A stretch of 56,955 bases of DNA from Girardia tigrina (taxonomy: Eukaryota), in assembly GCA_001938485.1 (NCBI GenBank), contig MQRK01183053.1, forward strand, positions 1 to 56,955. Reading direction: 5' to 3'. How positions within the stretch are numbered: position 1 is the stretch's first letter; each line of letters starts with the position of its first letter. Position numbers and translations under genes: made by a program. Below the pieces are notes generated by a model. It made no database searches. It saw only the letters and a program-made list of their open reading frames with translations, and was not told the origin of the DNA. Positions 12,436-53,136 of this stretch are shown one piece after another.

Positions 12436-13328
12436 TGCCGCGATAGCTTGTAAAATAAGATGATTTTTTCGATTTACAAAAAACTATGTTATTCAAACAA
12501 ATTAGATGATCCAATTAATTACAAAACGATTATGTGAAAATTAGATCAAAAAAACTTTTTAAGATCCTAAAATGGGAACAACGGAAAATTCGAAGTTTCA
12601 TTAAAATATTAATTAAAAAAGATCTACTTATAAATCATAATTAGTTTATATTAATGCTTTATTGTGTTTTTTAATCATTTCTTTTAAGTAAAACTTTGTT
12701 GTCAAAGTAGAGTTTTGTCTGCATAAAGAATGGATTTTAAAAATTTAATGTTTTGATTTACTAGTTTATTATAAAATTAAATTTTAAATTACATTTTAAA
12801 CAAAAAAAGACTGCTATTTTTATGTTATCTGTATATTTTCGTGCATGTATTATATGAGATAAGATCTAGAATTACCCATTACATCAATTGACATGAGAAA
12901 TAAAAGTTAAACGCCTATATCTCTTTGGAATTACATCTTACAATTCCGAGTTTATGCATTTGGTACTCCAAATAATTCTCGATTCGAATCCGGATTCCAA
13001 ATCCAGTATTGAAGAACCGACTCCGAAAAGAAAAAGAAAAATGTATTCTTGTTTCGTTTGCCGCATCAAGGAAGTACTGTAAGTTAAATTCGTTATTCTG
13101 TGAAACTCTTACTATTGTGTGATTCGATCTTTTCGTCTTTGCTGTTTATTTTCATTGTTGAACAATTATAAATTTTGTTTATATTGTTTTATCTTTATTC
13201 TTTTATAAACATTGTGAAAAAAAGTTCACTGAACTTTAATTTTTGATTTAGATTTTTTTACAGTTATAATTAGTTGAGAATACGTGTACAATTTTTATAT
13301 AAAATATTCTTAATATTAATTATCGATT

Positions 13329-14246
13329 ATGATTAGGCAAATTACATTAATAGTCGTATTTTTATCTTTAATAATGACATTATTATTATTCAAGCATATC
13401 AAGATCGATTCAGATTGCAGGGAATTCCTTCTTTTGAATCAGAACAAATTTACATCTCCTAGTAGCGATAACAGTACAAATTTCAGCGTAAATGTTTTAA
13501 ACCTCATCGCAAAAAATCACACTTTTCAAAAAGCATCGTTGAAATACAACAATCGTAACATAAATATTTATGTTTACGATACACATGACTTGATTTCCAG
13601 AGAGATTATCGAAATTGGAACGTGGGAAAAAAAATGGGTCGATCAAGTGATGAAATCAATGATGAAATACAACGAATCTCAATTGCTCGATATCGGATGC
13701 AATTTGGGAGTGTATTCGCTCGTGGCGGCTTCTCTCGGCCACCGGGTTGTGGCTGTCGATGCCAACAGGAACAACACAGAACGATTGGTTCAATCCGCCG
13801 TCGATAATCATTTCGAAGACCGAATACAAATTGTGTCGAATGCGGTTTCCAATGTGAAAAAAGAAGTGTCGATGAGATTGGTCAGGGGGAATATCGGAGG
13901 TCAAGAACTGGAAGATGTTGGCAAACATTCGTATAAGATCACGAGTATATTTATGGATGATTTAGTGCCATTGATGGAAAAAGGGAAAGAGGTCATTATC
14001 AAAATTGACATCGAAAGAAGTGAAATAAAAGCAATTCAAAAATCGTCACGATTATTTTCAGAAAGAAAAGTTGTAGCTGTATTTATGGAATGGGAATGGA
14101 TAAAAGTTATGAAGGAATGTTATGCCTTAATTTGTTTCTTTATGACCCAAAATTATCGACCTTATTCGGATTTCGTTTCGACCGTCGAACTTGAGGTATC
14201 GGAATTTTGGTCATGGCCTTACGAAATAGTGTGGAAAAAAAATTGA
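13329..14246 (+). CDS. FkbM-family SAM-dependent methyltransferase with N-terminal membrane anchor
   Basis: Intact 305-aa ORF with hydrophobic N-terminus and GTWE, LLDIGCNLGVYSL, VVAVDA, IVSNAVS, GNIGG and IIKIDIERSE motifs. Confidence 0.88.
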   Translation: MIRQITLIVVFLSLIMTLLLFKHIKIDSDCREFLLLNQNKFTSPSSDNSTNFSVNVLNLIAKNHTFQKASLKYNNRNINIYVYDTHDLISREIIEIGTWEKKWVDQVMKSMMKYNESQLLDIGCNLGVYSLVAASLGHRVVAVDANRNNTERLVQSAVDNHFEDRIQIVSNAVSNVKKEVSMRLVRGNIGGQELEDVGKHSYKITSIFMDDLVPLMEKGKEVIIKIDIERSEIKAIQKSSRLFSERKVVAVFMEWEWIKVMKECYALICFFMTQNYRPYSDFVSTVELEVSEFWSWPYEIVWKKN

Positions 14247-14689: not shown

Positions 14690-16053
14690 GAGAGGGCCGC
14701 GAAAAATAATCGGACACGAACAAAAATATATTTAATTAAACAGCATTACAGAAAATGATGATGAGAATTAATGCAAATCAGTATTTTGTTGGAAATCCCA
14801 ATGTTTTAATAATTTCAAAGCATCTTTTTTGAAATTTTTTTTTTCACCAAATTTCGACAAACGTCTACCGGAATTTTTTGCCATTCTTCTTTTATTATTT
14901 TAAATTTTTCTTTAGCATTTTTTGCATTACGCCCCTTGATTTGTCGGTCCAGATGGTCCCANNNNNNNNNNNNNNNNNNNNNNNNNNNNNNNNNNNNNNN
15001 NNNNNNNNNNNNNNNNNNNNNNNNNNNNNNNNNNNNNNNNNNNNNNNNNNNNNNNNNNNNNNNNNNNNNNNNNNNTCATTATCATGTTGGAACAAAAAGC
15101 TTTGTGCCATATTTCTCTCAGCAAACGTCACCATAGCATCTCTTAATATGTCTCTGTAAACAATTGCATTCATCTTTTCTTCTATTTGAACAATAGGACC
15201 TACACCATTTCTGCTAAAGCACCCCCATACCATGACATTTCCTCCACCATGCTTAATTGTAGGAATTTGATATTTTGGTTCAAATCTTTTGTTGGCGGGC
15301 CTTCTAACATATGANNNNNNNNNNNNNNNNNNNNNNNNNNNNNNNNNNNNNNNNNNNNNNNNNNNNNNNNNNNNNNTCCATTCAATATGATTCTTTGCAA
15401 ACTCAATTCTGGCCTTCCTGTTCTTAGCTGAAACAAAAGGTTTTTTGGCTGGTCGTCTTCCATATAAAGAAACATCTTTTAAACGTCTTTTGACACTTGA
15501 AACATGAACATTCATTCCATGAAAAGATGAAATTTCAGACTTTATATCAACAGCTGTTAGTCTAGGATTCGATTGTGATATCCTTTTAATCATTTTATCT
15601 TCTTTATTAGAAGTTTTTCTCAATTGCCACATCTTGGCAATTGAGAAGCAGTGCCACGCACCTTTGACAATTTTATAATGTCACCAACTGTTGACTTTGG
15701 TACTTTGAGAAGCTCAGATGTCTTTCTTATAGATAAAAGGCGATTGTAAGCCACTAGAACATTATTTCTTTCTTCAATGGTTAATTGACGTTTTCTTGGA
15801 CCAGTTTGAAATCTCATTATCACACTACTGTTGTGAATTTGTGAGCAAAAAAATGTCCGATTATTTATGAGCGAAATGAATTACAAAAACAGATTTTATT
15901 AAAGAATTTATTGATTTATCGATAATTTAATTTTTTATGAAAGATATCAAACTGTTAAGCTACAGATTTTGGCAAAATTTCATTAATATATTTAATACCA
16001 TTCAAGAGATATAGCCAATTTTCACTTCGTCCGGTTATTTTTGAGAGCTACTG
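14690..16053 (-). mobile_element. Tc1/mariner DNA transposon; transposase 15817->14778 frameshifted
   Basis: Paired HTH regions, RPAKKPFVS..NRKARIEFA, KHGGGNVMVWGCFS, FQHDN and terminal GFPTKY*. The right end is ...GCTACTG|TA, and aaaaataa(t/c)cggac is shared by both ends in inverted orientation. Confidence 0.9.
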
Positions 16054-16340: not shown

Positions 16341-16841
16341 TCATTGTTTGATTGCTTTGGTTACTTTTATACTTTTTCGACGTTCTGCAGAAAGTCTTAT
16401 TAAATGTTTCCGTACGCATTCCGCTGAAACATGAATTTGATAATCACTTTGTAATTGATCATTTAAATGAATGGTCATTTCGTCTAATTGTTCTGATGTG
16501 ACAACAGGATTATTGTTCATGTAATATTCCATCAATGCAACATGTTCTTCACTTATTGTATGGTTTCCTATAACTTGATTTTCACTTAATACTTGTCGTT
16601 TCTCTGATGTTCTCTTACGGTATTGTTCTGAAAGTAGTATTACATGTCTTCGTACACATTTATCTGAAACACTTATGTGATAATCACCGTATAGTATATC
16701 GATTATATGGATGATCATTTCATCTAATTGTTTTGATGTTACAACAGGATTATTTGTACAATAATATTCCATTAAGGAGAGATGTTCTTCTTTTAGATTA
16801 CAATTTTGACAATTTTGATTTTTCATAATATTACAAGACAT
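16341..16841 (-). CDS. Tandem-HTH-repeat protein, copy 3 (type B, 166 aa)
   Basis: Intact ORF. The segment 16054-17055 is an inverted duplicate of ~30054-31052. Confidence 0.75.
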   Translation of the reverse strand: MSCNIMKNQNCQNCNLKEEHLSLMEYYCTNNPVVTSKQLDEMIIHIIDILYGDYHISVSDKCVRRHVILLSEQYRKRTSEKRQVLSENQVIGNHTISEEHVALMEYYMNNNPVVTSEQLDEMTIHLNDQLQSDYQIHVSAECVRKHLIRLSAERRKSIKVTKAIKQ

Positions 16842-31416: not shown

Positions 31417-32856
31417 GGATATTATTGTTATTTATTAAATTTTCGAGCATAATCAATTTGTATTCAATTATTTTTTGAAAAGAAGTTTGAAAATAACACT
31501 TTAACCATTTATTTTAAAAGTGGCCTAAAAGTTTAGTTATCAGTTATAGACCGTGAGGAATATTTTTGAATGGTGTTTCTTGTGTGTTGTTTGGTATGTT
31601 GATTTGGGATTGTATTTCTCCAGCCCAGATGGAAAATTAATATTTAAAATATTTTAAAACGTCGGATTGTTTAATCAATTATTAAAATTTAGACAACCAA
31701 TTTTAAAATTAAATTAATATTTCATAAATAATATTGTAATAATAATTTTCTTAAAATAAATAATAATTTATTTAAGAATAAAAATTCGGAAAATTCGTTG
31801 CATAACATTCGTGAAACAAAATTGAAGAAAAATTGCGAAAAAGAGTCGAGTAATAATACGAAAAATGAAACTTTGATTCGATTTTTCCTGAATCTCTATC
31901 AAATTGAGGTTCCATCACGGAAACGAAAATATTATTTTGAATTGTTAAAAATAGAATATTGAATTTATCTTTGTCTATCAATTAAAAAAAATCTTCGAAG
32001 ATGATTTTTCGAAATTTCTTGTCAAAATTAGTGAAAAAGGTCGACATATCAAAATTCAAATCAAATTATTGAATTATAATTTCAATGAAGCATCAATTAA
32101 TATGAACAAAGATGTCTTGAAACTCAATGTCTATGATTCTTTCAAAATTGACAATTTACGCACATCGAAATTAATGAACTGATTTGATAATTGTAACTGC
32201 ATCAGAAATTGTGAAAATTTATTAATAAAATTATTAATAAAATCATGTAAATAAGAAGAATAAAAGGATTAGGAAAATAAATAAAAAGAATTAGAAAATG
32301 GAATATTTATATAAAGAACGAAAATATCAAACAGTAAACTGTAAATAAATTAATTAAAAATGTTGAAAAGACGTATAAAAAGGGAAGAAAAGAATAAGAA
32401 AATATAATAAAAAGTTAATTAAAAGTTAATTGGTTTTGAACCTTGACATACCTGTTCTAATTTTGGAGATTGCACTTTGGACAATCGCTGTTTGGATATT
32501 GAACCGTGCGTGCACTCGAGTTTAATATAAATATCGATTCAAAATTGTTAAATACAGACATAATAGTTATCTACGAAAATACCGTTAAAAGGCAATCAAA
32601 AAAATTGATTAAAAGGTAACATTAGAAGGACACCAAATGAGTTTTAATAAATTGTCTAAATTTTAATTTTAATAATCAGAGGTCGTGAGGATATATTATC
32701 CCACCGCCTATAGTAAAATTAAATAAGTTTTTTTTACCCTTTGTAAATTGTAAGTGTTGTAAAGATTAAATATAATCTATTTTTAATAATTTCTTTTGTT
32801 TTGAATTGATATTCTTATAATAAATTGCTATTATCTACCCAATACCCCAACAATTT

Positions 32857-32874
32857 TGGCGCCCAACGTGGTGC
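32857..32874 (+). promoter_or_regulatory. Primer-binding site, tRNA-Lys(1,2) type
   Basis: TGGCGCCCAACGTGGTGC is a 17/18 match to the known Lys1,2 PBS TGGCGCCCAACGTGGGGC. It lies 4 nt after an ...ACA putative LTR end (32852) and upstream of gag. Confidence 0.88.
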
Positions 32875-33114: not shown

Positions 33115-34290
33115 ATGGCAGAGGATAAGGAAAATAAGAATAAGAAACCCCAAATAAAATCTTTAGATTTCTTACCACTTGAACCTTTTTCAGGAAAGCC
33201 TGAAGATTTTGATAGATATTTTAAGGAATATAAAAGTTATGCCAATGCTAGTGGTTGGGGAGAGACTGAAATGACACGTAGATTACCACTTTATTTAAAA
33301 AGGTATACCTTACAGGCTTTAAATACTTTAGATCAGCAAGCAACTATTGATAAAATCATTGAGAAATTAAGATCTGTTGTAGTTATAGACATCGAATTAG
33401 GCAAAATCTATGCACATAATTTCAGGAACAGGTAACAAAAACAGAATGAAAATGTCACTGAGTATTGTTTCGCATTAAAAGAATTAGCTGAGAAAGCCTT
33501 TGGAAAAGATGCCAAGGCAGGATCAATAATTACGGATCAATTTTTAAATGGAGTTCATGGATATATTAAAAAAGCCTTAGTCCTAGCAGAATATAAAGAT
33601 TTCGACGAATTAGTGCAAAAGGCTCAACGTATAGAGCAAATAATTTAAATAAAATTAAGCCTATAGAAATAGGAGCAACTGGCCAAATATTCGAAAAAAA
33701 ATTATCCCAGGAATAATCATCCATCCGGTGGCAGTATCGATGGCGATTTCTCGGATCGATATAATAATAATAATGGAAATAATAATAATAACTTATACCA
33801 GAATGGTAGAAATAATTATAGAGGGAATAATCGAAATAATGGGCGAGGTTATAATCAAAATAATCGTGGATATAGAAACGGAAATAATAGAAAGAATAAT
33901 GAATATAATGGAAATAATGGATATAATAGAAATAATGGAAATAATGGATATAATGGATATAATGGATATAATAGAAATGGATACAAATGAAATAATATAA
34001 ATAATAATCGGTATAATGGCAATAGAAATAATAATGAATATAATAATAATGGATATAATAATAATCAAAGAAATAGTAATTCATATGAGAATAATAATAA
34101 TAATGGTTATCAAAAAGGATATAATAACAGAGGTAAAAATAATAGAGGATTTAACAGTAATAAAGGTAACAGAGATAAAGTAAACCAAAACGTTGAAGTT
34201 TTGTGTTTCCTCTGTAAAAAATATGGCCATTTTGCTAGATCCTGTACACAAATAGTGGAAATTTTCAAAACAAACCAGTTTATGGAGTAG
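33115..34290 (+). pseudogene. Ty3/Gypsy gag with Asn/Gly/Tyr/Arg-rich tract and CCHC knuckle
   Basis: EPFSGKPEDFDRYFKEY..ANASGW..LPLYL capsid-like start, N-rich repeats at 33760-34170 and CFLCKKYGHFARSC at 34204-34245, with premature stops. Confidence 0.85.
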
Positions 34291-35839
34291 AAATTGAGGT
34301 ATCTGATAATTTAATGGAACAAGCAGTTCTAATCGAAAAGGAAAGATTGGCTGCAAGTTATATCCCAATGGGAATGTTGGAGATTGACGAAATCGTTGAT
34401 TTAAAAAGGGAAATAAAGATATTAAAGATTCGATTACAACGAGAAAAGGAACTTCAGATCGGGATGATCGAAGATACTACAAACGATTCAATTAGAGAAT
34501 TAAAAAGAAGTTTCCAAAGCAGTATACAAGATGAAAGTAAAATAAAAGAAGTATTGATAAAATTACAAGAAATTGACGAAATAAAGGAATTAGAACCTGT
34601 TTTACCAATATTAAGGAAAGAAATGGTAAAGATTTCTATTTATCGAGAAAATATAATAAAAAATATTAGATAAATATGGACAACATAATGTCTCGAACAG
34701 AAATTTACAAAAACCTTTAAAAATATCTATAGTAACTGACGATTAAAATCCTGAAAGGACAGAAATATTAAAATTACATAAAGTACACCCGTGTATCAAA
34801 ATGAACAAATGAATAAATAAGGTAAAAAGGTATGGCCAAATTCATTAAATACTACTGATGAAATACGATTATATTATAACAATAATCAATTAAAGTTGAA
34901 TCAGCATCTAATATGTGCAGGGTTAACATTTGATGGGATAAATATTCTTAAGGCAGTAGCAATATTAGATAAAACAAGGTTGAAAGTAGATAATGTCCCT
35001 CAACAAGTTACAGATTTAGATGATGAACAAGAAAGTTACGATGAAGAAGCTACTCAAACCGCGAATGAAGAAATCACGGACGAATTATTAGAAAAATTAT
35101 GGAATGACGCTGAGAGACGAGAAAATGATAATGATTTTGGAGAATTAATCGAAAGTAATGAAGTAATAACAAATAGTCATGGAGAAACATTCTTAAATAA
35201 AGCTGAAGCTACAACTTCAACAAGAAAACAAAGAGGAAGACCGAAAAGATGTGAAAACGATCCACAACTAACTATAAAAGATACAAGGAGTCAATCCTTG
35301 ACAAAGTCACTTCAATGAATAGCAAAAGGAGGAGATCCCAACGAAACAAGAAATGTAGAAATTGAAAATGTTGTTTGTTGTCTACTACAAGATGTAATAA
35401 AAGGAGATTATAATTTCACGTTAATTAAACATTAACCCATATAATAAAAATAGCTCAAAGCGTTAAAAATGATATATATCATGTAATGAAGGACAATGAA
35501 CGGAGTATTAATGACGGGGAAGTATTACGAAATTTGTTAGCATTCACCCCTGATAAAAATCGAATAATCACTGCCTTAGTATTCATTGCTATAAGAGCAC
35601 ATGAAAAATTTCATTCCATCCAATTGGTCAAGAAACATATATAGAATTAACAGTTTCATTAATCGAAAATCGGATAAACCCATGGATTCAATCTCGTGGT
35701 GGATGGAAGAATGCCTTGCAAAAAGATAATGACGAAGCTGAAAAGATAATTCAAGCTGATATGTGAAAAAAGGAACAATTTCATTTAATGAAATGGGAGT
35801 CATCGAAGAAATAAATGCATTAAATAAAGATGGAATACA

Positions 35840-38800
35840 AGAAAGACCAACAGCTCAAATTCAAATAAATGAAAGGAAAATAGTGGCATTAATTGATACA
35901 GGAGCAGCCGCATCTCTTATTAAATCATAATTTTTGTCAAAAGAACAAAAGAAAAATATCGAGCAAAATAATCAAAACTTGACATCATTAACTAGTCACA
36001 CCTTAAACACTGAAGGGAAAATAACTCTTGTTCAAATCGCGGATCAAGAAATTTATACTGAATTCTATGTTATTAAGTGATTTCCGCACGATTGTTTACT
36101 AGGAATAAATTTTTAAACACAATTAAAAGGATATTCGATAGATCTCCAAAATAATCAATTAATCAATAAAAAACGTAGAATACGAGTTCCAAAAGATTAT
36201 CGGGTTACGGTAGGAAGAGAATTAATAATTCCTCCTCGAAAAGAAATATATACCTTAGAAAATGTAGAAATGAAAGACAATAGTGGAGATTGTATATTCA
36301 TTCCGAAAGATCTGCCTGAATCAGAAATAGAGATTGCATCCTGCGTAGTAAGACCAAAAGATGGGAAAGTACCCATAAAATTTGCAAATTTTTCAAATAA
36401 AACCAAGCGATTTAGAACCCGTACAGTTCGAGGAACAGTACAGAAAACAGAATTAGAGATAAATGTATTAAATAATACAGAACATGATGTTATGAAATCC
36501 GAGATTAAATCTTATACTACATTACTAAAAGATAATGATTACTTAACTAATCAGCAGAAAATTGAATTATCAAAGATATTAGCTGAGTATAGTGATGCAA
36601 TGGCCACACATGAATTTGATTTAGGAAATGTACGAATAGTGGAACACGCTATCGTTACTACAAATGAGAAACCAATTACTCAGAGAGTATATTCGGCTCC
36701 ACCTAAGATACGAGAAGAGATAAAAAGACAAACGAAACAATTGTTATAGGAAAAAATCATACGAGCAAGGGCTTCACCGTGGTCATCACCAATCGTTCCA
36801 GTTAAGAAGAAAGACGGAGAAATTCGTATATGCATCGATTATCAAGCACTGAATGCAGTTACAAAAAGAGACACGTATCCTCTACCAAAGCCCCAGGAAA
36901 TGTTTGATAAACTTGGAGGTTGCAAATACTTCACCAAGTTAGACACAAATAAGGGTTTTTATTAAATAAAAATAGTAGATTCAGATATTGAAAAGACCGC
37001 TTTCACCACTGGAGAAGGATTATATGAGTTTATAAAGATACCATTCGGATTAACGAATGCACCAGCTACTTTTCAACGAGGAATGAACCAAATTTTAATG
37101 GAAACAGACCATGCAATGGTATATATGGACGATGTAATAATAAAATCAAAAACATTTCCAAAACACAAGAGACACGTGGCAGATGTATTATATAAATTCA
37201 GAAAAGCAGGTATAAAAATAAAACCTATAAAATGTGATTGGGCAAGGCCTCAAGTATTGTTTTTGGGTCACATCATTTAAGGATTTGGAATAGCTCCCGA
37301 TCCAGAGAAAATAATACAAGTTAAAGAATTTCCTATTCCAAAGAGTATCAGAGAGACCCAATGTTTTCTGGGATTGACAGGATATTATAGACGGTTTCAA
37401 AAAGATTATTCGAAAATTGCCATCCCTCTTACAAATTTGACAAAAGTACCAAAAGATATTGCGAAAAATGAAATTAAAAAAATTGTTTAAATGGACAGAG
37501 GAATGCCAAACTGCATTTGACAAGTTAAAAAATAATTTAATAAATGCAGCAGTTTTACGTTATCCAAATTTCACAAAGCCTTTTCTTTTGATGACAGACG
37601 CAAGTAGAGGAGCACTAGGCGCTGTTTTGGGCCAAGAAGATGAAGAGGGACGAAATTATGTTGTAGCATATGCCAGTCGTATCCTCAAAGGAGCTGAAAC
37701 TCGTTATTCAACCATAGAACGAGAATGCTTAGCAATTGTGTTTGGAGTAACCCATTTTAGGTAATATTTATATGGTGCATAAATCAGCTTAAAAAACAGA
37801 CCATAAACCTCTTGAAAGTCTAATGAAAAATAAAAATGCCTCAAGTCGTCTAATAGGATGGACAATGCGATTACAGGATTGCGATATAAAGATAAAATAT
37901 CGAAGCGGAAAGGCAAATGCAAATGCAGATGCATTGTCAAGAATTCCTCTTACAGCAATTGAAACAATAAAATTGAAAGATTTAGTAAATCAGATGCTTG
38001 AGATTGCCACCTTGAACGTAAATCTAAATACAAACTTACAAAACTAGCAAGAAAGTGATACAAAAATTAAAGAATTAAAATCAAAATTAATGGAAAATCA
38101 GAAAAAGCAATAACGATTAATAGACAATACATTAATGCATTTAGATGGAGATAGAGAGTTGATTGTTATTCCTAATTCACAAAAGGACAATATTATGATG
38201 CATTATCACGATGGAGCTTTGAGAGTACATCTCTCATTACGAAAGACGTTTAATAGAATTAGAGAAAAATACTATTGGGGAGGCATGCGACATGACATCG
38301 AATCTTGGATTCAATCATGCGCAATTTGTGCTACCAGAAAAAATACAGGAAACCAAACTAAGGTTCCTTTAAAACCAATACCAGTACCAGCAGCTCCATT
38401 CGAAACATGTGCAATGGATGTAGTCGGACCATTGCCAGAAACAATAAATGGTAATAAATACATTTTAGTATTCGTAAATCATTTTTCGAAATTCACAGAA
38501 GCATTTGCAATGTCAGATCAAAAGGTTGAAACATTGGCACCTATTTTTGTTGAACGTATCATATTTAAATATGGTCCACCAAAAATAATTTTGACAGACA
38601 GAGGACAAAATTTTATGAGTAACGTCATGAATCAAATAAATCATGTTTTCGGAATATTGAAACTCAATACCACTGGATATCACCCTGAAACTAATGGAGC
38701 GTACAAATGGCACGTTTCTAAATAGAATGGCTTGTTTAACAAATCGCAAGCAATGTGACTGGGATATATTTATACCCTATGTACTATTTGTAATAAATAA

Positions 38801-39323
38801 TACAAAATCTGAGATAACAGGTTATAAATCCAGTTACCTTCTATATTTAAGGGAAATCATAATGCCTGTCGATTTAGATTTTAATCCGGTACCATCTCAG
38901 TTGATGGAAGTCCCAGATTTTATAACTTTGATGATAGAAAAAATGAACATTGTTTATAAACAAGTGGATTTACAAATAAAGTATAATCAAGAGAAATATA
39001 AAGAGCAATATGATAAAAAGGCTAAACCACATTCTTACAAAGTAGGAGACAAAGTTGGCAAGGCCATATAAGGGTCCGTATGAGGTTGTCAGAGTAACAC
39101 CCACAAATCTATTTATAATAAAACATTAAAAGACATTTATAATAAAACATTAGTACATGTAAACAGATGTAAAAAAGCGGAAAATGAACCTAGAAAGGAA
39201 TATAATCTTAGATCACGCACACAACTTGAAGTGGCAATGATAGAAATCGGTCCATCAACGTCCACAAAAATCAAAAATTCTGAATCCACAGATTATGAAG
39301 ATATTATAACAATTAATCCTTAA
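35840..39323 (+). pseudogene. Ty3/Gypsy pol (PR-RT-RH-IN), degenerate
   Basis: ALIDTGA, SPWSSPIVPVKKKDGEIRICIDY, PFGLTNAPATFQ, YMDD, TDAS, ERECLAI, HHCC zinc region, MDVVGP, LTDRGQNF, YHPETNG and GPY...VHVNR motifs. Confidence 0.95.
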
Positions 39324-39861
39324 GTACCACGATCAAAATCAATTCAAATAAAACAATCACGAAAAAAATTGGAAAATGAATCACCGTTATCCCGAAAAGA
39401 GGTGCGCGAGAAAGCAACCATTTTACTATTGCAAGAAGATATTGGGCTTCACTTTGCATGAGTACATATTTACAATGATCTATTTTTCAAATATGCAGTA
39501 AGAGAATATCCACATCTCTTTGCTGTAAAAGATCCAAAAAGAAATGCTACCCCATTGCAGATTGTAATAACTCGACATAAGTTTCACAAGGCTTCAAAAT
39601 TACTTAAACAGACACAATTATGCGAATATCCAGGATTGATAGATACTCAAGGCATTGGAGGATTAACTGCGCTAATGGAAGCAATAGTGCATCGAGCACC
39701 GTTCCATTCGGTTATAGCACCTTTTATTATATACTCTAATTTAGCACTTCTAGATCAACGCGGAGAAACCGCTTCCGAATATAATAAAAGATATGGTTCG
39801 GAATTGGTTAAGTCAGTATTCGAAATAATAGAAAATAATGAAATCGGATTGTACCGTTTAA
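39324..39861 (+). pseudogene. Ankyrin-repeat-like domain in frame with the integrase C-terminus
   Basis: IGLHFA, KDPKRNATPLQIVI, IDTQGIGGLTALMEAI and LLDQRGETASEY are spaced ~35-42 aa apart. There is one internal TGA (39459), and the domain is cut by the TTAA element. Confidence 0.62.
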
Positions 39862-40532
39862 CACATTGTAATCGGATCATGTATTAATACGTTTTTAGCA
39901 ACTTAATGCTAGAGAGCGGATCACGTATTTATACGTTTTTGATAGATTGTTAGTGGAGTGCGGGTCACGTTAAAATACGGGTTCCAATATACTTGAGTTT
40001 TCGCTATATAGCGTCTGTAGGGTTGTAGCCATGCAGATAAAAACCTTTTGAGAACAATAGATGGGATGTACGATTGGTACCGATGTAGTTTTATTCATCA
40101 CAAAAATAGTCGAAGATAACGGTACATATAACGGTCTACATGCAACACTAAGACGAAGAATAATAATTTGTTTTAGTTTATTTCACTACTCTTTGGTGGT
40201 TGGACGTTGCTAAAAGCTAAATATCGAGTACATAGATTTTTGTGTATAATTTGTAAAATAAAGGATGTTATGTAAAAAAAATATGATTTTTTTCTAAACT
40301 TTCCTACTTTATGTGAAATTCTGCACTAGTTTAACGATGAAGAATACATTTCTAAATATAATAAAATAAAATGTAATAAAATAAATAATTTGCAAAAAGA
40401 ATTTTTGAAATCAAACAAATATTTTTGAAGTTATCGCAATTTTTCTAGAGGTCTACGTTAGTGCGAAATTACGCGAAAAATCACCCGTTACCAGCACTAG
40501 TACGCGGCCGAAAACTGCCCGACCACAATGTG
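39862..40532. mobile_element. piggyBac-like non-autonomous element (671 bp)
   Basis: TTAA|CACATTGTAATCGG...CCGACCACAATGTG|TTAA gives a 14-bp TIR with 2 mismatches. Three subterminal repeats cgg(a/g)tca(t/c)gt...atacg lie at ~39873, 39918 and 39961. Confidence 0.8.
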
Positions 40533-43500
40533 TTAACATGAATTCTATTTCTGCCAACATTTCTACCCAATCTCTATGCATTTCATCCTTTAATCGTATA
40601 TTTATGGCGTCTCTTATTGTTTTGAATTGTCTTTCTATGATCCCGTTAGTGTTGTGGTGATGAGGGGTTGAGTAGACTATCTCAGTCTTAAATCTTTTCG
40701 TCGTTTCTTTAAAGAGTGCTGATTCGAAAGTTTTCTCTCTATCAACGTGTATCTCTTTTGATGGTCCGAATTTCCAAATCCATTTCTCGAATAGTACCTT
40801 TCGTGTAGTCTTTTCGTCTTGGTGTGCCACTGCGGTCAAGCTGATGTACCTACTAAATTGATCGATTATTGATAAAATGTATTGGTATCCATTCATAGTT
40901 CTTCTGAATGGTCCGCAAAAGTCCATGTAAATTTTTTGAAATGGTTCGTCGGTAGATTGTTTAATGTGTTTCTCTTTCGTTTTTGCCGTCAGTGTCTTCC
41001 TTTTCTGGAAGTTTGTGCAACTTTGTACGATGTTCTTTATTTGTTGTCTCATTTCATACATATCGAAGTCATGTTTTATGTAATTGTAAACTTTCTTACT
41101 TCCTGCGTGGCATAACATTTTATGTATATCTTCTTTAAAGTCTGTTCTCTTCTTCTGAGGGATCCAATATTTATTATCTCTTGTCGTCACGATATTGTTT
41201 TTTAGTAGCCATTCTTTTGTCTTTTCCATTTTAATATTTTCTTTAATCTGTTCTATTTCTTCATCATTCGTCTGCCAAATGAACTCTTCTGAATCTTCTG
41301 TTAATGCTAGAATTCTAGTTTTAACGTTTACTTTTTTAGCGTCATCGTGCATTGTCTGACATTGTACACATAGTTCACATGTATTTCTCGACATTGCGTC
41401 TGAATTGGTGTGTTTTTCGCCCTTGCGGTATTCCATCCTCATGTCTAGTCCACTAAGGAAGTTTATCCAAGTTTGGAATTGTGGAGTTATTGGGTTCTTC
41501 GTTGTCATCATGAATGCGATGACCTTATGATCCGTTCTAAGTAGAAACTTCTTTCCGTATAAGAAATGTTTGAAGTGTTGCGTAAAGTAATAGATTGCCA
41601 ATAATTCTTTTCTTGTAATACAGTATCTCAGTTCGTGTTTGTTCATCTTGTGGGATCCATATGCATTTACTCTTTCCCTTCCGTATGCATCCTTCTATGC
41701 AAGTAATGCCCCGATTGCATCAAAACTGGCGTCTGTATCCAGTATAAACTCCTTTTCGAAATCTGGATATGCAAGGATCGGTGTTTTTGTCATTTTATCT
41801 TTTAATGTCTGAAACACTTCGTCACATTCCTTTGTCCATGTCAATTTTTTATTTTTTAATTTTTCCACATAGCCCTTCCAGTATTTTTGAATATTTTGCA
41901 TAATCCTTAAAAAATTTTCTATAATAGTTCGTTAGCCCAAAGAAACTTCTGAAATGTTTAATACACGAAGGATTTTGAAATTTGTCGATTGCTTCAATTT
42001 TCGTTTTATCCGTCTCTATGGGCCTCCCATCTCTTTCGAATGGTATTGAGCCATTTGGCTCTTTAGAGGGTCCACCTAAACTAAAGAGTGCTAGCTGTCC
42101 CCCCCCGATAGGCCTCTTACGGGGACGGAGTGCTTCAGTCTCCGAAATTTCTTGGGCTTCCTGTTGCAAACGACCAATCATAAATTGTGGTACCATGATT
42201 ACGCATCCCTTTGGCTGTATTGGTGGACTTGGTACAGCCAAGAAAGGGACATTTGAACTTTCCCCTCGCATTTGGATCTGCGATCCTTAAAGACAAATGT
42301 GTTTCTTCGGGATAAATCCTTTGCTCCACCACCGTTGAAATAGTCGGGGTTACTGTTGCTGGTTGAAAATTGGTCATTTGGATAAGTGTGACTTCTTCGT
42401 CTCTGTCTGGATTGTCGTTTCTTCTGTTGGATTGCATTGATGATTCTGTCGGATGTTCATTGATATTCTCCCTCACATCTATTCGATGATCTTTACGTAG
42501 ATGCCTAGTGAACCATCCTTTCGTTTTGTAACCTTTGCTGCATTTGGTACATTTAAAAGGTTTTTCATCTTCTGGGAACTGAAGCGGTATGCTTACTGTG
42601 GATTCCGTGTGATCCTGCTTGAGATGTCTATTTACCTCCTTTTGTTTGGCAAACTCCTTAAAGCAATCTTCTATCGTAAATTGAAGGAGTTTATCTCTCT
42701 CATTGAGTAATTGCGGCAGATCGGCTCTTGTTCTGTTCTGCTTCCCTTCTCTTATTAAGGAGTTGATGTATTGCCCTCTTTCTATTGTGGGGTCTTTGTG
42801 GACAATGTGGTGTATGAAGTCTCCATACTTTGCACTCTCCCAAAAGAGCCACTATATATCCATTCTGAGGCATTCGGAGAGAGCTTGCTTCTTTCTCCCA
42901 CTAATCTTCTTTCCCATTGACATTGTTGCTCTCCACACACACCTCATAATGTTTGGTGTATCAGAGGTGTCCAACCTGCTATGATAGGCAAGTCTTCTGC
43001 TTGCAATGATATCCATGGGGAGTGGGAGTCCAATGTCGATAGTGTCCATTTGTATCCTCTCAGTCTTCTGCACTTTCATGACTGTGCGAGTACACAAATT
43101 ATGAAAGGCAGCCAGCTTCTTGATTGTTTTGTTACCTGTTCGCCAACTCTCACAACTGTAGTATACTACGGGAAGTATGCAAGAGCTGACAATCTTGTTC
43201 TTGTTCCGTAAAGAGAGTTTGGAGCTCCTCAGAACCGGTTTGAGGTCTCTGGTCTTCCTGGTACCCTTTTGAATTCTTTCTCTAATCTCATCTTCAGCGG
43301 TGCCATTTGAGGAGATTGTGGAACCCAAATAGACGAATTTGGATACCCACTAAATACCAGTCTCAAGCTGGTGTCCGGCAGTGAGAACTTTGGTATCTCC
43401 GTTTAGGTTCATAACATTGTTCTTATTGATATTGATCTTTAGTCCTAAATCTGCAAATGAGTCATTCAGTAGAGTAAGGTTTCTGATAAGATTGTTCCAG

Positions 43501-49431: not shown

Positions 49432-51054
49432 TCAAAAAGGATTATTTATCTGATTATATATGAAACGTAACTGATTATTCTCTTTCATCAATTCTTTATT
49501 GCGCCTCATAATCACTTCAAGAAGAGATTTGGAAATGTTATTCTCGGTTTTCATGAGATGATCTATTACATCACATATAAGTTCGCACTTCAAGCGATTT
49601 TCCATTTCGTCCAGAGAGGCGCGAATGATATCTGATTTAATCCATTCTGTATTCTTTCCCGTAAGGTCATTAGAAATAGTAATTGTAGTACAATCTTCCA
49701 TGTCATTACCTTCAAACTTCATCGAATAAACAGATAATTGATTCGGTCCATGTTTCAGAGGTATCGTTTTATGTGATTCCCTCTTTTCCGAAACTAAATC
49801 ATTGTTGCTTTTATTATCGGTGTCCAGATTATTTATTAAGCCACTGATGTTGAAACTATTACTAGAGCTACTTTCCTTATCACTGCTATTCGTTTTCAAG
49901 TTGGATTTTCTTTTAAAAGGTAAATCACTTGAATAATTACTAAACTGATCATCACTGCAAGAAAACAAAGAACTATCACAACAATTCCATTCATCCACAT
50001 CCTCATCTAACTCCGAGGATTCATTCACATCATCGGTACTATCGAAGGCAGTAAATAATTTCCTGGAATCATTTGATAGATTGTATGATAGTCTTTTTTG
50101 ATCATTGATGTATCCATGAGTATTGTTATTGATTGATGGAGGCTGACAAAAACTAAATCCCAGAAATTTGATATCCGATGAATGACTTAATTCGTGAATC
50201 GGCGATTTTACGTTACGCAAATCGAATATCGAAACTAAACCGAAGGAGTCGGCCAATGCGAAGTAATAATCGGCACTCATCGCACATGCTGTGATTGGAT
50301 TAGATAACAAAAACTGTTTCTGGGTTTTTTTTTCATTAGACACAAAAAGAGTAGCGCTATTATCGGCACTGGCGGACAAAAAAAGATGCTTGTTATAGTG
50401 AGAGAATGAGAGATCATTGACTCGTGAATCGTGATTCGTCCATCTTGTCAATTTGATCTCGCGTTCAATGTCGTAAAGAGCGATCGTACCCTTTTCTGAT
50501 CCTGACAAGAGTTGCTCATCTTGCCAGGGATTTGTAGTAATTGTACATGTATAAGGCTCCGTATAATGAGTGAGTACCTGACTTGTAAACGAGGTTGTGT
50601 TAAAGGAAGAGACCTGTCCGGATGAATGAGAGAAGAACCAATACTTATCATTAAAAGAAGTTGACATTCCGGTGACATTGTCCGGGATTTTTCCGCTTGC
50701 TTGATTGAGACACGATTTGAAACGGTACTTTTTCAAATCATATAAGAGGATTTGGGATAAATTATCAATGCCTATCAACCATCGGTTTTGATGAAAGGAA
50801 AAACAATTTAAATCATATATCGATTTCATTGACCACTTTAATGTCCCGGTCATCGTGTGGATATTAAGCCGTTTTTTAAATTTTTCGTAAATCCCAATAT
50901 GTCCATTGTTATTATCAAGACAAACTGATATTTCACCACTGTATTTCAGGGATTTATATTTTGAGGGTGACTTTCCAGAAATGGAAACCATATCGACTTC
51001 ATAACTTGGATTTCCTTTGGAGATGTAGAGATTTAGTTTGGGATCATAATTCAT
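49432..51054 (-). CDS. NEDD1: WD40 protein with C-terminal coiled coil, NEDD1/GCP-WD-like (gamma-tubulin ring targeting factor)
   Basis: Intact 540-aa ORF with WD repeats (LLSGSEKGTIALYD, FSHYNKHLFLSASAD, PITACA..GLVSIFDLR..KSP), a Ser/Asp-rich linker and C-terminal ELMKENNQLR, which fits NEDD1 architecture. Confidence 0.65.
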   Translation of the reverse strand: MNYDPKLNLYISKGNPSYEVDMVSISGKSPSKYKSLKYSGEISVCLDNNNGHIGIYEKFKKRLNIHTMTGTLKWSMKSIYDLNCFSFHQNRWLIGIDNLSQILLYDLKKYRFKSCLNQASGKIPDNVTGMSTSFNDKYWFFSHSSGQVSSFNTTSFTSQVLTHYTEPYTCTITTNPWQDEQLLSGSEKGTIALYDIEREIKLTRWTNHDSRVNDLSFSHYNKHLFLSASADNSATLFVSNEKKTQKQFLLSNPITACAMSADYYFALADSFGLVSIFDLRNVKSPIHELSHSSDIKFLGFSFCQPPSINNNTHGYINDQKRLSYNLSNDSRKLFTAFDSTDDVNESSELDEDVDEWNCCDSSLFSCSDDQFSNYSSDLPFKRKSNLKTNSSDKESSSSNSFNISGLINNLDTDNKSNNDLVSEKRESHKTIPLKHGPNQLSVYSMKFEGNDMEDCTTITISNDLTGKNTEWIKSDIIRASLDEMENRLKCELICDVIDHLMKTENNISKSLLEVIMRRNKELMKENNQLRFIYNQINNPF

Positions 51055-52860
51055 TGGTTAGGGATTTTTTTTTAATATTATTTTACGTATTTTTTAAAAT
51101 CTATATTTAAACAAAATAATATTTAAAATATCATTAAAACAAATTATATTTTTTTAAAGAAAAAACTATGATGGAATAATTTTACTCAATAATTATTTTG
51201 AATTGAGAAGCAATATGTTCTAAAGATTTTGTTGCGTATACAAACTAGAATAAGAATTTTCAATCACGGAAACAACAAGTTATAAATATTTGAAATTCGG
51301 ATTGAGTTATCGTTTTTCGAAAGCTTTAATTCGGTTTCTGTCTCCGGCTTATTGCTTTTTTTAAATATCAAAATCTAAATTAAAATTGGATATAAAATTA
51401 TTATTCATATTCACTGCTTGAAATATCTGTAAAAAGATTCATTAAAAATTTGGATTACTAAAGTTTTAACACTGTTTACCTTTTTTACGTTTTTCTTTAC
51501 TTTTTTTTTTTTTNNNNNNNNNNTACGATTTTTTTCATTAAATTATTGACAATTAAGTTAATCAAAATTTTATTTTAATTTATAAAAAAATATTAAGATA
51601 TCAAATTTTGTCAAAATATATCCACAATATTTTGCTTAATCAACGTTATGACTTGATCTGGATTATTTGCTTTTTATAAAATTAAATTAAAAAAATATTC
51701 TAATTAAAAAAAAATTCATCACATTCTTTTAAATTCAAAAACATTTTTTGCTAGGATTTAATTTCCACCAAAAAATTTTACCCTGATTCTTCATGTAAAC
51801 AAATTTTCTCTGAAATCATAATTAGAATAATAAATAAAATATGAAAAAAAGAAAATTATTAAATTTTTTACACATTTTAAGAAGTTTTTTTTATAATAAT
51901 AATTAGAATAGAAATTTAAATATAATGTTAATGAATTTAAAATAATAAAGAATCATTAAAAATAGATAAATAGTCAAACATTTATTAACTTTTATTCTCA
52001 TTTTTTAATTAGGAATATTTTAAAATAAATTTTTATTATATTAATTATCTAATTTTCAAAATATTTCTGGAACATTTTAGATGCAAATCGAACAAGTCTG
52101 ATCGCGTTGCGATTCTATTTAACCTTTTTGGACCCATTTAAAAAAATAAATAAAAGTTAAATAAATATTTTAAATAATTAAATTAAATATATATAAGTAT
52201 ATATATAAATAAATATATGTGAGATCATCACGTTCATATGGTTTTATGATGATTCAAAATTAATTATGAGTCGATTCTCTTTCAACAATTTCTCAGTGAC
52301 TAATAAAATAATTATTCCTCCACGAATCGATCGTTTTATCATTCGATGAAATTCTGTTTACAATTTTGTAGAATAATCGATTTAAATTGATTTCTGTTTT
52401 CGATGCAGTCATTGGTAACGGAACAATCAATTGATTAAAACAAATGAAAATAGTTTTGACCATCTGTTTTTGTTATTTGCTTTTGAACAAGTAAATTTGA
52501 AATTGACATTGGATTTGTTCAAACCGGATATTCAACGATTCGATAAATTCGTACGAGAATCGGAAAAAGCGACTATTGACAATAATTTGAAAATGTTATG
52601 TAAAAAATACTATTTATCGATACGAATATTTTTTGTGACTTGATTATTATTGTATCGAGATCGGATTTTTATTATTTATTAAATTTGAAAACAATTTAAT
52701 GTAATGTTTCAGAAGCCGATATTGATCGATTAATGAAAACGGTTTGTTTTGATGCATAAATTATGTACGTGACTTTTGTCACAATTTTTAAATTTATGTA
52801 ATCAAAATAAAAGTCAATTTTTCAATTCAATAATTGAATAAAATAAAAATTCAATTTTTA

Positions 52861-53136
52861 ATGAATGCTGTTGAAAGAAGTAATGTTTTGGTCATTGGAG
52901 CGGGCGGTATCGGATATGAATTGGTAAAAAATCTTGTGATGTGGCACTTCAAAAACATAACTGTGCTCGATTTAGACACAATTGGTGTGAATCATTTAAA
53001 TAGACAGTTTTTGTTTCGTAAAAAGCGTGTAGGCAAATTGAAAGCTTTGACCGCAAAAAAAAGTGTGTTAAAGTTTAATCCCGATGTGAATATCGAGACG
53101 AAACACGACGATTTTAACTCAACTGTTTTGAGCTGA
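52861..53136 (+). pseudogene. UBA2: SUMO E1 subunit UBA2/SAE2-like N-terminal fragment
   Basis: VLVIGAGGIG(Y)ELVKNL...DLDTI(GVNH)LNRQFLFRK..VGK.KA, with conserved residues altered and a stop after ~91 aa. Confidence 0.7.

Follow-up and report, generated by a model that had tools for sequence, protein, structure and literature searches.

A divergent ankyrin module, likely cut from the integrase, in a compact Burro-like Gypsy family of Girardia tigrina

In the genome of Girardia tigrina the reading frame of a Gypsy-type integrase runs on, through stop codons, into a segment that resembles ankyrin repeats. This raises the questions of whether the segment is an ankyrin domain, whether it belongs to the retrotransposon and what it would contribute to it. 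The locus lies in contig MQRK01183053.1 of assembly GCA_001938485.1, and the window analysed here is the whole stretch of 56,955 nucleotides on its forward strand. A preliminary description of this DNA had been made from the sequence alone, and its claims are taken up below where the results bear on them.

Read from 39153, the frame encodes the end of the integrase (VHVNRCKK...YNLRSR) and, when re-read, contains exactly the two stops described earlier (TAA 39321, TGA 39459) before the motifs IGLHFA, NATPLQIVI, GLTALMEAI and RGETASEY. The threonines of NATPL, GLTAL and GETA are spaced by 39 and 34 residues, near the ankyrin spacing. The window copy alone is too decayed to score, with no Pfam match at E<=1 and no match in a PDB sequence search; the comparison with the Ank and Ank_2 models that had been proposed therefore failed on its translation and succeeded on sister copies. 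Among these, Ank_2 was matched at E<=0.01 by 15 of the 27 copies of one set and 17 of the 25 of another, and its cut-off (27.3 bits) was exceeded by one sister copy (28.5) and by a metagenome relative, P0041 (31.0). A profile of the family searched against 1.84 billion proteins returned ankyrin proteins only (34/34 matches), and the top matches in the ESM Atlas were ankyrin clusters (score 0.97). Against the PDB, a first, narrow profile had no match; a wider one matched 24 sequences at E<=1, 15 of them named ankyrin or DARPin, and its best match was an ankyrin protein (E 2.2e-4) spanning the part from GLTALMEAI to GETASEY. The AlphaFold model of the segment (pLDDT 46) has paired helices only and is too poor to reveal a fold, and Foldseek found no match with this low-confidence model. 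Longer proteins containing the domain were not found, which is weak evidence, and the matches of a genome-wide Ank_2 search were mostly ORFs with multiple ankyrin repeats, which scored higher. The segment is thus a real, divergent ankyrin module, as had been proposed from its motifs. One of the four motifs does not hold: IGLHFA, for which the sister family has IGFQY(A/T/S)LG, is part of a degenerate N-terminal cap and hence no canonical ankyrin motif.

The module is part of a multi-copy element. A genome search gave 987 candidates, and all 150 matches that were scored had E<1e-57, at 75-89% identity once the window itself is set aside. Enough upstream DNA was available for 42 distinct copies; the integrase C-terminal motif lies in the ankyrin frame in 26 of them, and 17 of the 42 are stop-free from this motif to the ankyrin start, all 17 coming from 18 rows on contigs chosen for long frames. 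All but one of the 17 continue in frame to a hydrophobic segment, two of these 16 with a stop inside the ankyrin. Among 24 unselected top matches, nine share the integrase and ankyrin frame and none is stop-free, from which it follows that most copies are dead. Since the stops fall at different positions from copy to copy and 17 copies are open across the linker, the two stops of the window represent decay, and programmed read-through is ruled out. Ancestral coding of integrase and ankyrin in one frame, one of the options raised at the outset, is therefore borne out by other copies in which pol is open as far as the ankyrin, while read-through and a separate ORF are not supported.

Pairwise dN/dS is ~0.14 in the ankyrin (36 copies, 519 of 630 pairs kept, the pairs not being independent), compared with 0.07 in the integrase core and ~0.25 in the linker, and the ankyrin segment is under purifying selection. 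The order integrase, ankyrin, hydrophobic segment is retained in a sister family (L142-L171), in which the ankyrin is ~40% identical and the integrase mostly 76-82% (range 56-82%), and in P0041, 45% identical to the query; the layout thus recurs in relatives, as the preliminary description had thought worth searching for. It had also considered that other copies might end with an LTR directly after the integrase; the ankyrin lies inside LTR-bounded copies instead. The sister family has a short linker and a longer ectodomain with a duplicated look, and one locus (L144) appears to combine the tail of the main family with the ORF2 of the sister family.

The copy in the window is a dead member of a common envelope-carrying Gypsy family that has lost env and its 3' end; its parts are listed in the table.

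Table. Parts of the ankyrin-carrying Gypsy copy and of the adjoining DNA in the window
Feature	Position	Strand	Evidence or remark
5' LTR (5' edge approximate)	32220..32853	+	96% identity over 636 bp to both LTRs of G000:C241498
Primer-binding site TGGCGCCCAAC...	32857..32874	+	Immediately follows the LTR, as in 4 other copies
gag, Asn-rich stretch and one CCHC knuckle, broken	33115..34260	+	zf-CCHC in sister copy
BCL2-like domain (weak support), broken	35298..35745	+	Pfam Bcl-2 E 0.0031, below cut-off
env deletion point, ~2 kb fusion-glycoprotein region gone	35746..35749	+	Monjiviricetes_fusion here in sister copies
Protease, PR-RT spacer domain, RT, RNase H; stops and frameshifts	35829..37882	+	
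Integrase (H2C2, core, C-terminal domain, YNLRS end); frameshifts	38156..39215	+	Pfam Integrase_H2C2, rve
Likely protease cleavage motif EVAMIE, integrase/ankyrin border	39228..39245	+	Putative cleavage, from the motif
Variable linker, one stop in window copy	39246..39395	+	dN/dS ~0.25
Ankyrin module: degenerate N-cap, two repeats (near 39543, near 39660), C-cap (near 39759)	39396..39845	+	One stop at 39459
11-bp remnant of second Gypsy integrase	39846..39856	-	Tail-to-tail join
~680-bp MITE with terminal inverted repeats, at TTAA in second element	39857..40536	.	Unrelated to the ankyrin element

The primer-binding site is presumably of the tRNA-Lys type. The env deletion is a one-off event, its junction being spanned by none of the 39 other scored matches, and an env-less subfamily is accordingly ruled out. 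At 39845 the copy breaks off and is joined tail to tail to the integrase of a second Gypsy element; both elements lost their 3' parts at this join. The window ORF consequently ends in 13 codons that are not element sequence, and the ankyrin segment, which had been drawn to 39861, is present with its element boundary moved back to this point. Neither a polypurine tract nor an LTR follows the ankyrin in the window copy. The 11-bp remnant matches the sequence past the MITE site in all four uninterrupted copies inspected, one exactly, and the MITE, which is young and TTAA-specific, has 39 other scored loci at 90-99% identity. The second Gypsy element extends on the minus strand from 40537 to ~45150 and has a C2H2 zinc-finger ORF, probably an insertion, between its RT and RNase H parts (42135-42851). 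Elsewhere the window contains a methyltransferase-like ORF (13320-14246, plus strand), a Tc3-type transposase ORF (14895-15680, minus), a WD40 ORF with a CDC20/Fizzy-type best match (49432-51057, minus) and a ThiF ORF (52834-53136, plus). In G000:C241498, the closest two-LTR relative of the window copy, an internal deletion has removed the ankyrin and the tail, and a second Gypsy element is nested within it.

The architecture of the family was reconstructed with probes on natural copies, in which the order is primer-binding site, gag, BCL2-like domain, fusion glycoprotein, protease, spacer domain, RT, RNase H, integrase, ankyrin, tail, ORF2 and 3' LTR. The hallmarks of Ty3/Gypsy elements (Metaviridae) are present, namely LTRs, a primer-binding site, the order PR-RT-RH-IN and a short target duplication. 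An LTR-to-LTR copy, itself broken (G000:C235718:3074-17234), measures 14.2 kb with LTRs 98.4% identical, and LTR length in the family is 630-750 bp. One stop-free frame from gag to the tail has 3,084 codons, 974 of which are assembly gaps, and the ORF1 polyprotein is inferred to have ~3,250 aa. The env product of sister copies matches Monjiviricetes_fusion (E 1.7e-69) and lies in frame between the BCL2-like domain and the protease. The BCL2-like domain is in the expected position; in addition to the Pfam match given in the table, the domain of a sister copy had five PDB matches, all Bcl-2 A1, at only E 0.66-1.5. In gag of a sister copy zf-CCHC is matched at E 7e-4, and one knuckle was seen. 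BIR and MATH domains had no match in the family frames scanned, some of which contain N gaps, and none of seven genomic BIR loci had family probes within 1.5 kb. Conserved domains occupy both places where, by comparison with Burro/GYPSM1, SUMO-like and dUTPase-like domains are expected; neither had a significant match.

Six distinct solo LTRs are flanked by 4-bp target duplications at unrelated sites. No purine tract was found before the 3' LTR in the copies inspected (e.g. G000:C235718 ~16447-16481), where this copy and others have a short G/C hairpin-like stretch in its place. Public sequencing contigs from four runs of two samples cover the integrase, ankyrin, tail and ORF2 of relatives and contain no splice joint at the ORF1/ORF2 border; three of the four runs are only guessed to be RNA, and DNA may be present. 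A different gag-env-pol Gypsy family, with a fusion glycoprotein only 25% identical, was also seen (L085:1-3700, minus strand; G000:C142558).

The preliminary description had looked for a polypurine tract and a 3' LTR right after the ankyrin; in the family the ORF1 frame extends instead ~300 codons beyond it and is followed by a second ORF. Directly after the ankyrin a basic linker and a hydrophobic segment occur in every lineage seen. The structure model of the tail combines a beta-sandwich (pLDDT 71-84) with two helices, one signal-like and one transmembrane. Structurally the tail comes closest to a designed immunoglobulin domain (Z 9.0, rmsd 1.5, 66 residues), and it also resembles a chain of an IL20-receptor complex (Z 7.9), a range that possibly means a common fold only. 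The tail is thus predicted to comprise a signal-like segment, an Ig-like ectodomain and a transmembrane helix, and searches of Pfam, PDB sequences, the Atlas and viral folds with the ectodomain gave no match at E<=0.001. The C-terminus of ORF1 reads xTQV in 56 of 60 distinct stretches (e.g. L035:801-900), an end that we take to resemble a class I PDZ-binding motif. The DNA here, which is shared with ORF2, is conserved at silent sites too, and what is constrained may be something other than the ORF1 protein. ORF2, absent from the window and seen in other copies (L036:3636-5999), is in the -1 frame and overlaps the last ~29 codons of ORF1. It contains an exonuclease of ISG20/ISG20L2-like type (RNase_T 24.3 bits, cut-off 24; PDB E 8.3e-9) with a DEDDh pattern, and an additional conserved domain of no assigned family (dN/dS ~0.06).

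The relation between integrase and ankyrin is informed by a short motif at the borders of pol. The pattern E-[IV]-[NAC]-[AVTM]-[LMVI]-[NE] occurs before the protease, before RT, before the integrase and just after the YNLRS end of the integrase. It is found at no other place in the four family frames scanned, with 0.006-0.016 occurrences per frame in shuffles, figures that are partly post hoc given that the pattern was widened after the integrase/ankyrin site was known. The window copy has all four motifs (35808, 36456, 38000 and 39228); a matching word is present at 27 of 35 distinct integrase ends, with near variants at the remaining eight, and the motif is retained in the sister family and in P0041. 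Between the ankyrin and the membrane segment there is no strict border motif. To judge from these sites, the element's own protease likely separates the ankyrin from the integrase, and since the motif that marks three borders in pol is seen again between these two domains, an integrase-ankyrin fusion acting as a tether is unlikely.

The function that we consider probable is that of an accessory factor of a compact Burro-like Gypsy element, released by the protease and binding a host protein, rather than of a tether that targets insertion. ORF1 would be made as one polyprotein that is inserted across membranes and matured by the viral protease together with signal peptidase. The integrase would end near YNLRS, and the ankyrin piece, once released by the viral protease, would lie on the cytoplasmic side, either free or held by the hydrophobic segment that follows. 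Like the IkB-mimicking ankyrin proteins of large DNA viruses, it may there bind a protein of host signalling or cell death, which would be in keeping with the BCL2-like, Ig-like and ISG20-like cargo. Of the two roles proposed in the preliminary description, host-factor antagonism would be the better guess. Among the observations counted for an accessory factor are that the ankyrin evolves faster than the integrase between the main and sister families, that linker length differs among relatives (31-77 aa, with the VHVNRCK motif as the starting point) and that the six solo LTRs lie at unrelated sites. A broader proposal, which is put forward tentatively, regards the family as a minimal 14-kb enveloped Gypsy element whose cargo resembles the set of proteins with which large DNA viruses control their hosts: an IkB-like ankyrin released by the protease, a BCL2-like protein, an Ig-fold surface protein that ends in a PDZ-type tail, and an RNA exonuclease of ISG20-like type. 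If this holds, the family would be a compact and tractable model of how Burro-type proviruses disarm their hosts.

An unlikely alternative makes the ankyrin a membrane-anchored assembly adaptor on the cytoplasmic face, linking gag or pol products to the membrane at which env buds. The basic linker and hydrophobic segment after the ankyrin, the absence of the strict protease motif at that place and the fusion glycoprotein of the family would all suit such a role, whereas the gB-type gag-env-pol elements of PMC13524379 are reported, in the portion of that source available, with no mention of an ankyrin. The ankyrin moreover diverges faster than the enzymes. More doubtful again is the proposal that the ankyrin stays fused to the integrase and tethers the integration complex to host chromatin or to a transcription factor, in the manner of a chromodomain. 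The chromovirus chromodomain has a targeting role, and the in-frame place of the ankyrin directly after the integrase C-terminal domain, kept in three lineages, as well as the purifying selection on it, would agree with a similar use. The likely cleavage motif between the two domains and the continuation of the frame into a membrane protein nevertheless disfavour the target-site tethering suggested earlier; the variable linker also counts against it, as does the absence of a shared target sequence at the six solo-LTR sites, although tethering to a chromatin protein is compatible with such flanks. That the segment is a neutral captured fragment or unrelated flanking DNA, in frame by chance, is already refuted by the scored genomic matches, the fixed position inside LTR-bounded copies, the low dN/dS and the 17 open frames, despite the lack of a Pfam match for the window copy alone and of a polypurine tract or LTR after it.

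Ankyrin repeats had been regarded as a non-standard Gypsy domain; they are already in print for Burro/GYPSM1, giant planarian Gypsy elements described in PMC6431247, which credits Jurka 2007 and Grohme 2018. According to the available part of that source, these elements exceed 30 kb and have an ORF1 of 4,873-5,140 aa with two to three CCHC knuckles, ankyrin repeats and BIR and MATH domains; a mononegavirus-type env lies in frame between a BCL2-like motif and the protease. Compared by description, the present family shares the long ORF with gag, a weakly supported BCL2-like domain, fusion glycoprotein, PR-RT-RH-IN and ankyrin, so that the gag-BCL2-env-pol-ankyrin layout is already known and the core finding is not new. 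It differs in its 14.2 kb and ORF1 of ~3,250 aa, in its single CCHC knuckle and in that BIR and MATH were not found, and because the giant size and the BIR/MATH cargo are missing, it is classed as a compact variant that resembles Burro and not as Burro itself. Section 7 of PMC6431247 mentions neither an Ig-like membrane tail nor an ISG20-like ORF for Burro. No literature on the compact family, on the Ig-like tail or on the ISG20-like ORF was found; Repbase and Grohme 2018, outside the scope of the search, may describe them.

Other known elements share parts of this organization. The GAG-ENV-POL errantiviruses with HSV/gB-type ENV reported from Platyhelminthes, Nematoda and Bryozoa, including Smed_errantivirus_1-6 from Schmidtea, have the same ORF order, and the ENV of Smed_errantivirus_1 and _2 has motifs in common with that of the present family in a by-eye comparison (PMC13524379, as far as available); the text and seven text supplements of that source mention neither ankyrin nor Burro, and the main text no exonuclease. 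Bdelloid rotifer LTR elements likewise have a 3'-5' exonuclease ORF downstream of pol (ORF3), which in the available part of the account is an RNase D-like DEDDy enzyme that replaces env, whereas the present one is ISG20/ISG20L2-like with a DEDDh pattern and stands alongside env (PMC5408684). Chromoviruses also carry an extra domain after the integrase C-terminal domain, the chromodomain at the pol C-terminus (PMC12440569, in part); in the present family, unlike in chromoviruses, the extra domain stands between a likely protease site and a membrane protein. What is added to the known layout is that the ankyrin is under selection and, as the border motifs suggest, likely cut free of the integrase, in a family of half the size whose cargo is limited to the ankyrin, a BCL2-like domain, an Ig-like membrane protein and an ISG20-like exonuclease. 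This reduced set hints at the accessory functions that are needed by an enveloped Gypsy element, and the compact family is easier to test than the 30-kb Burro.
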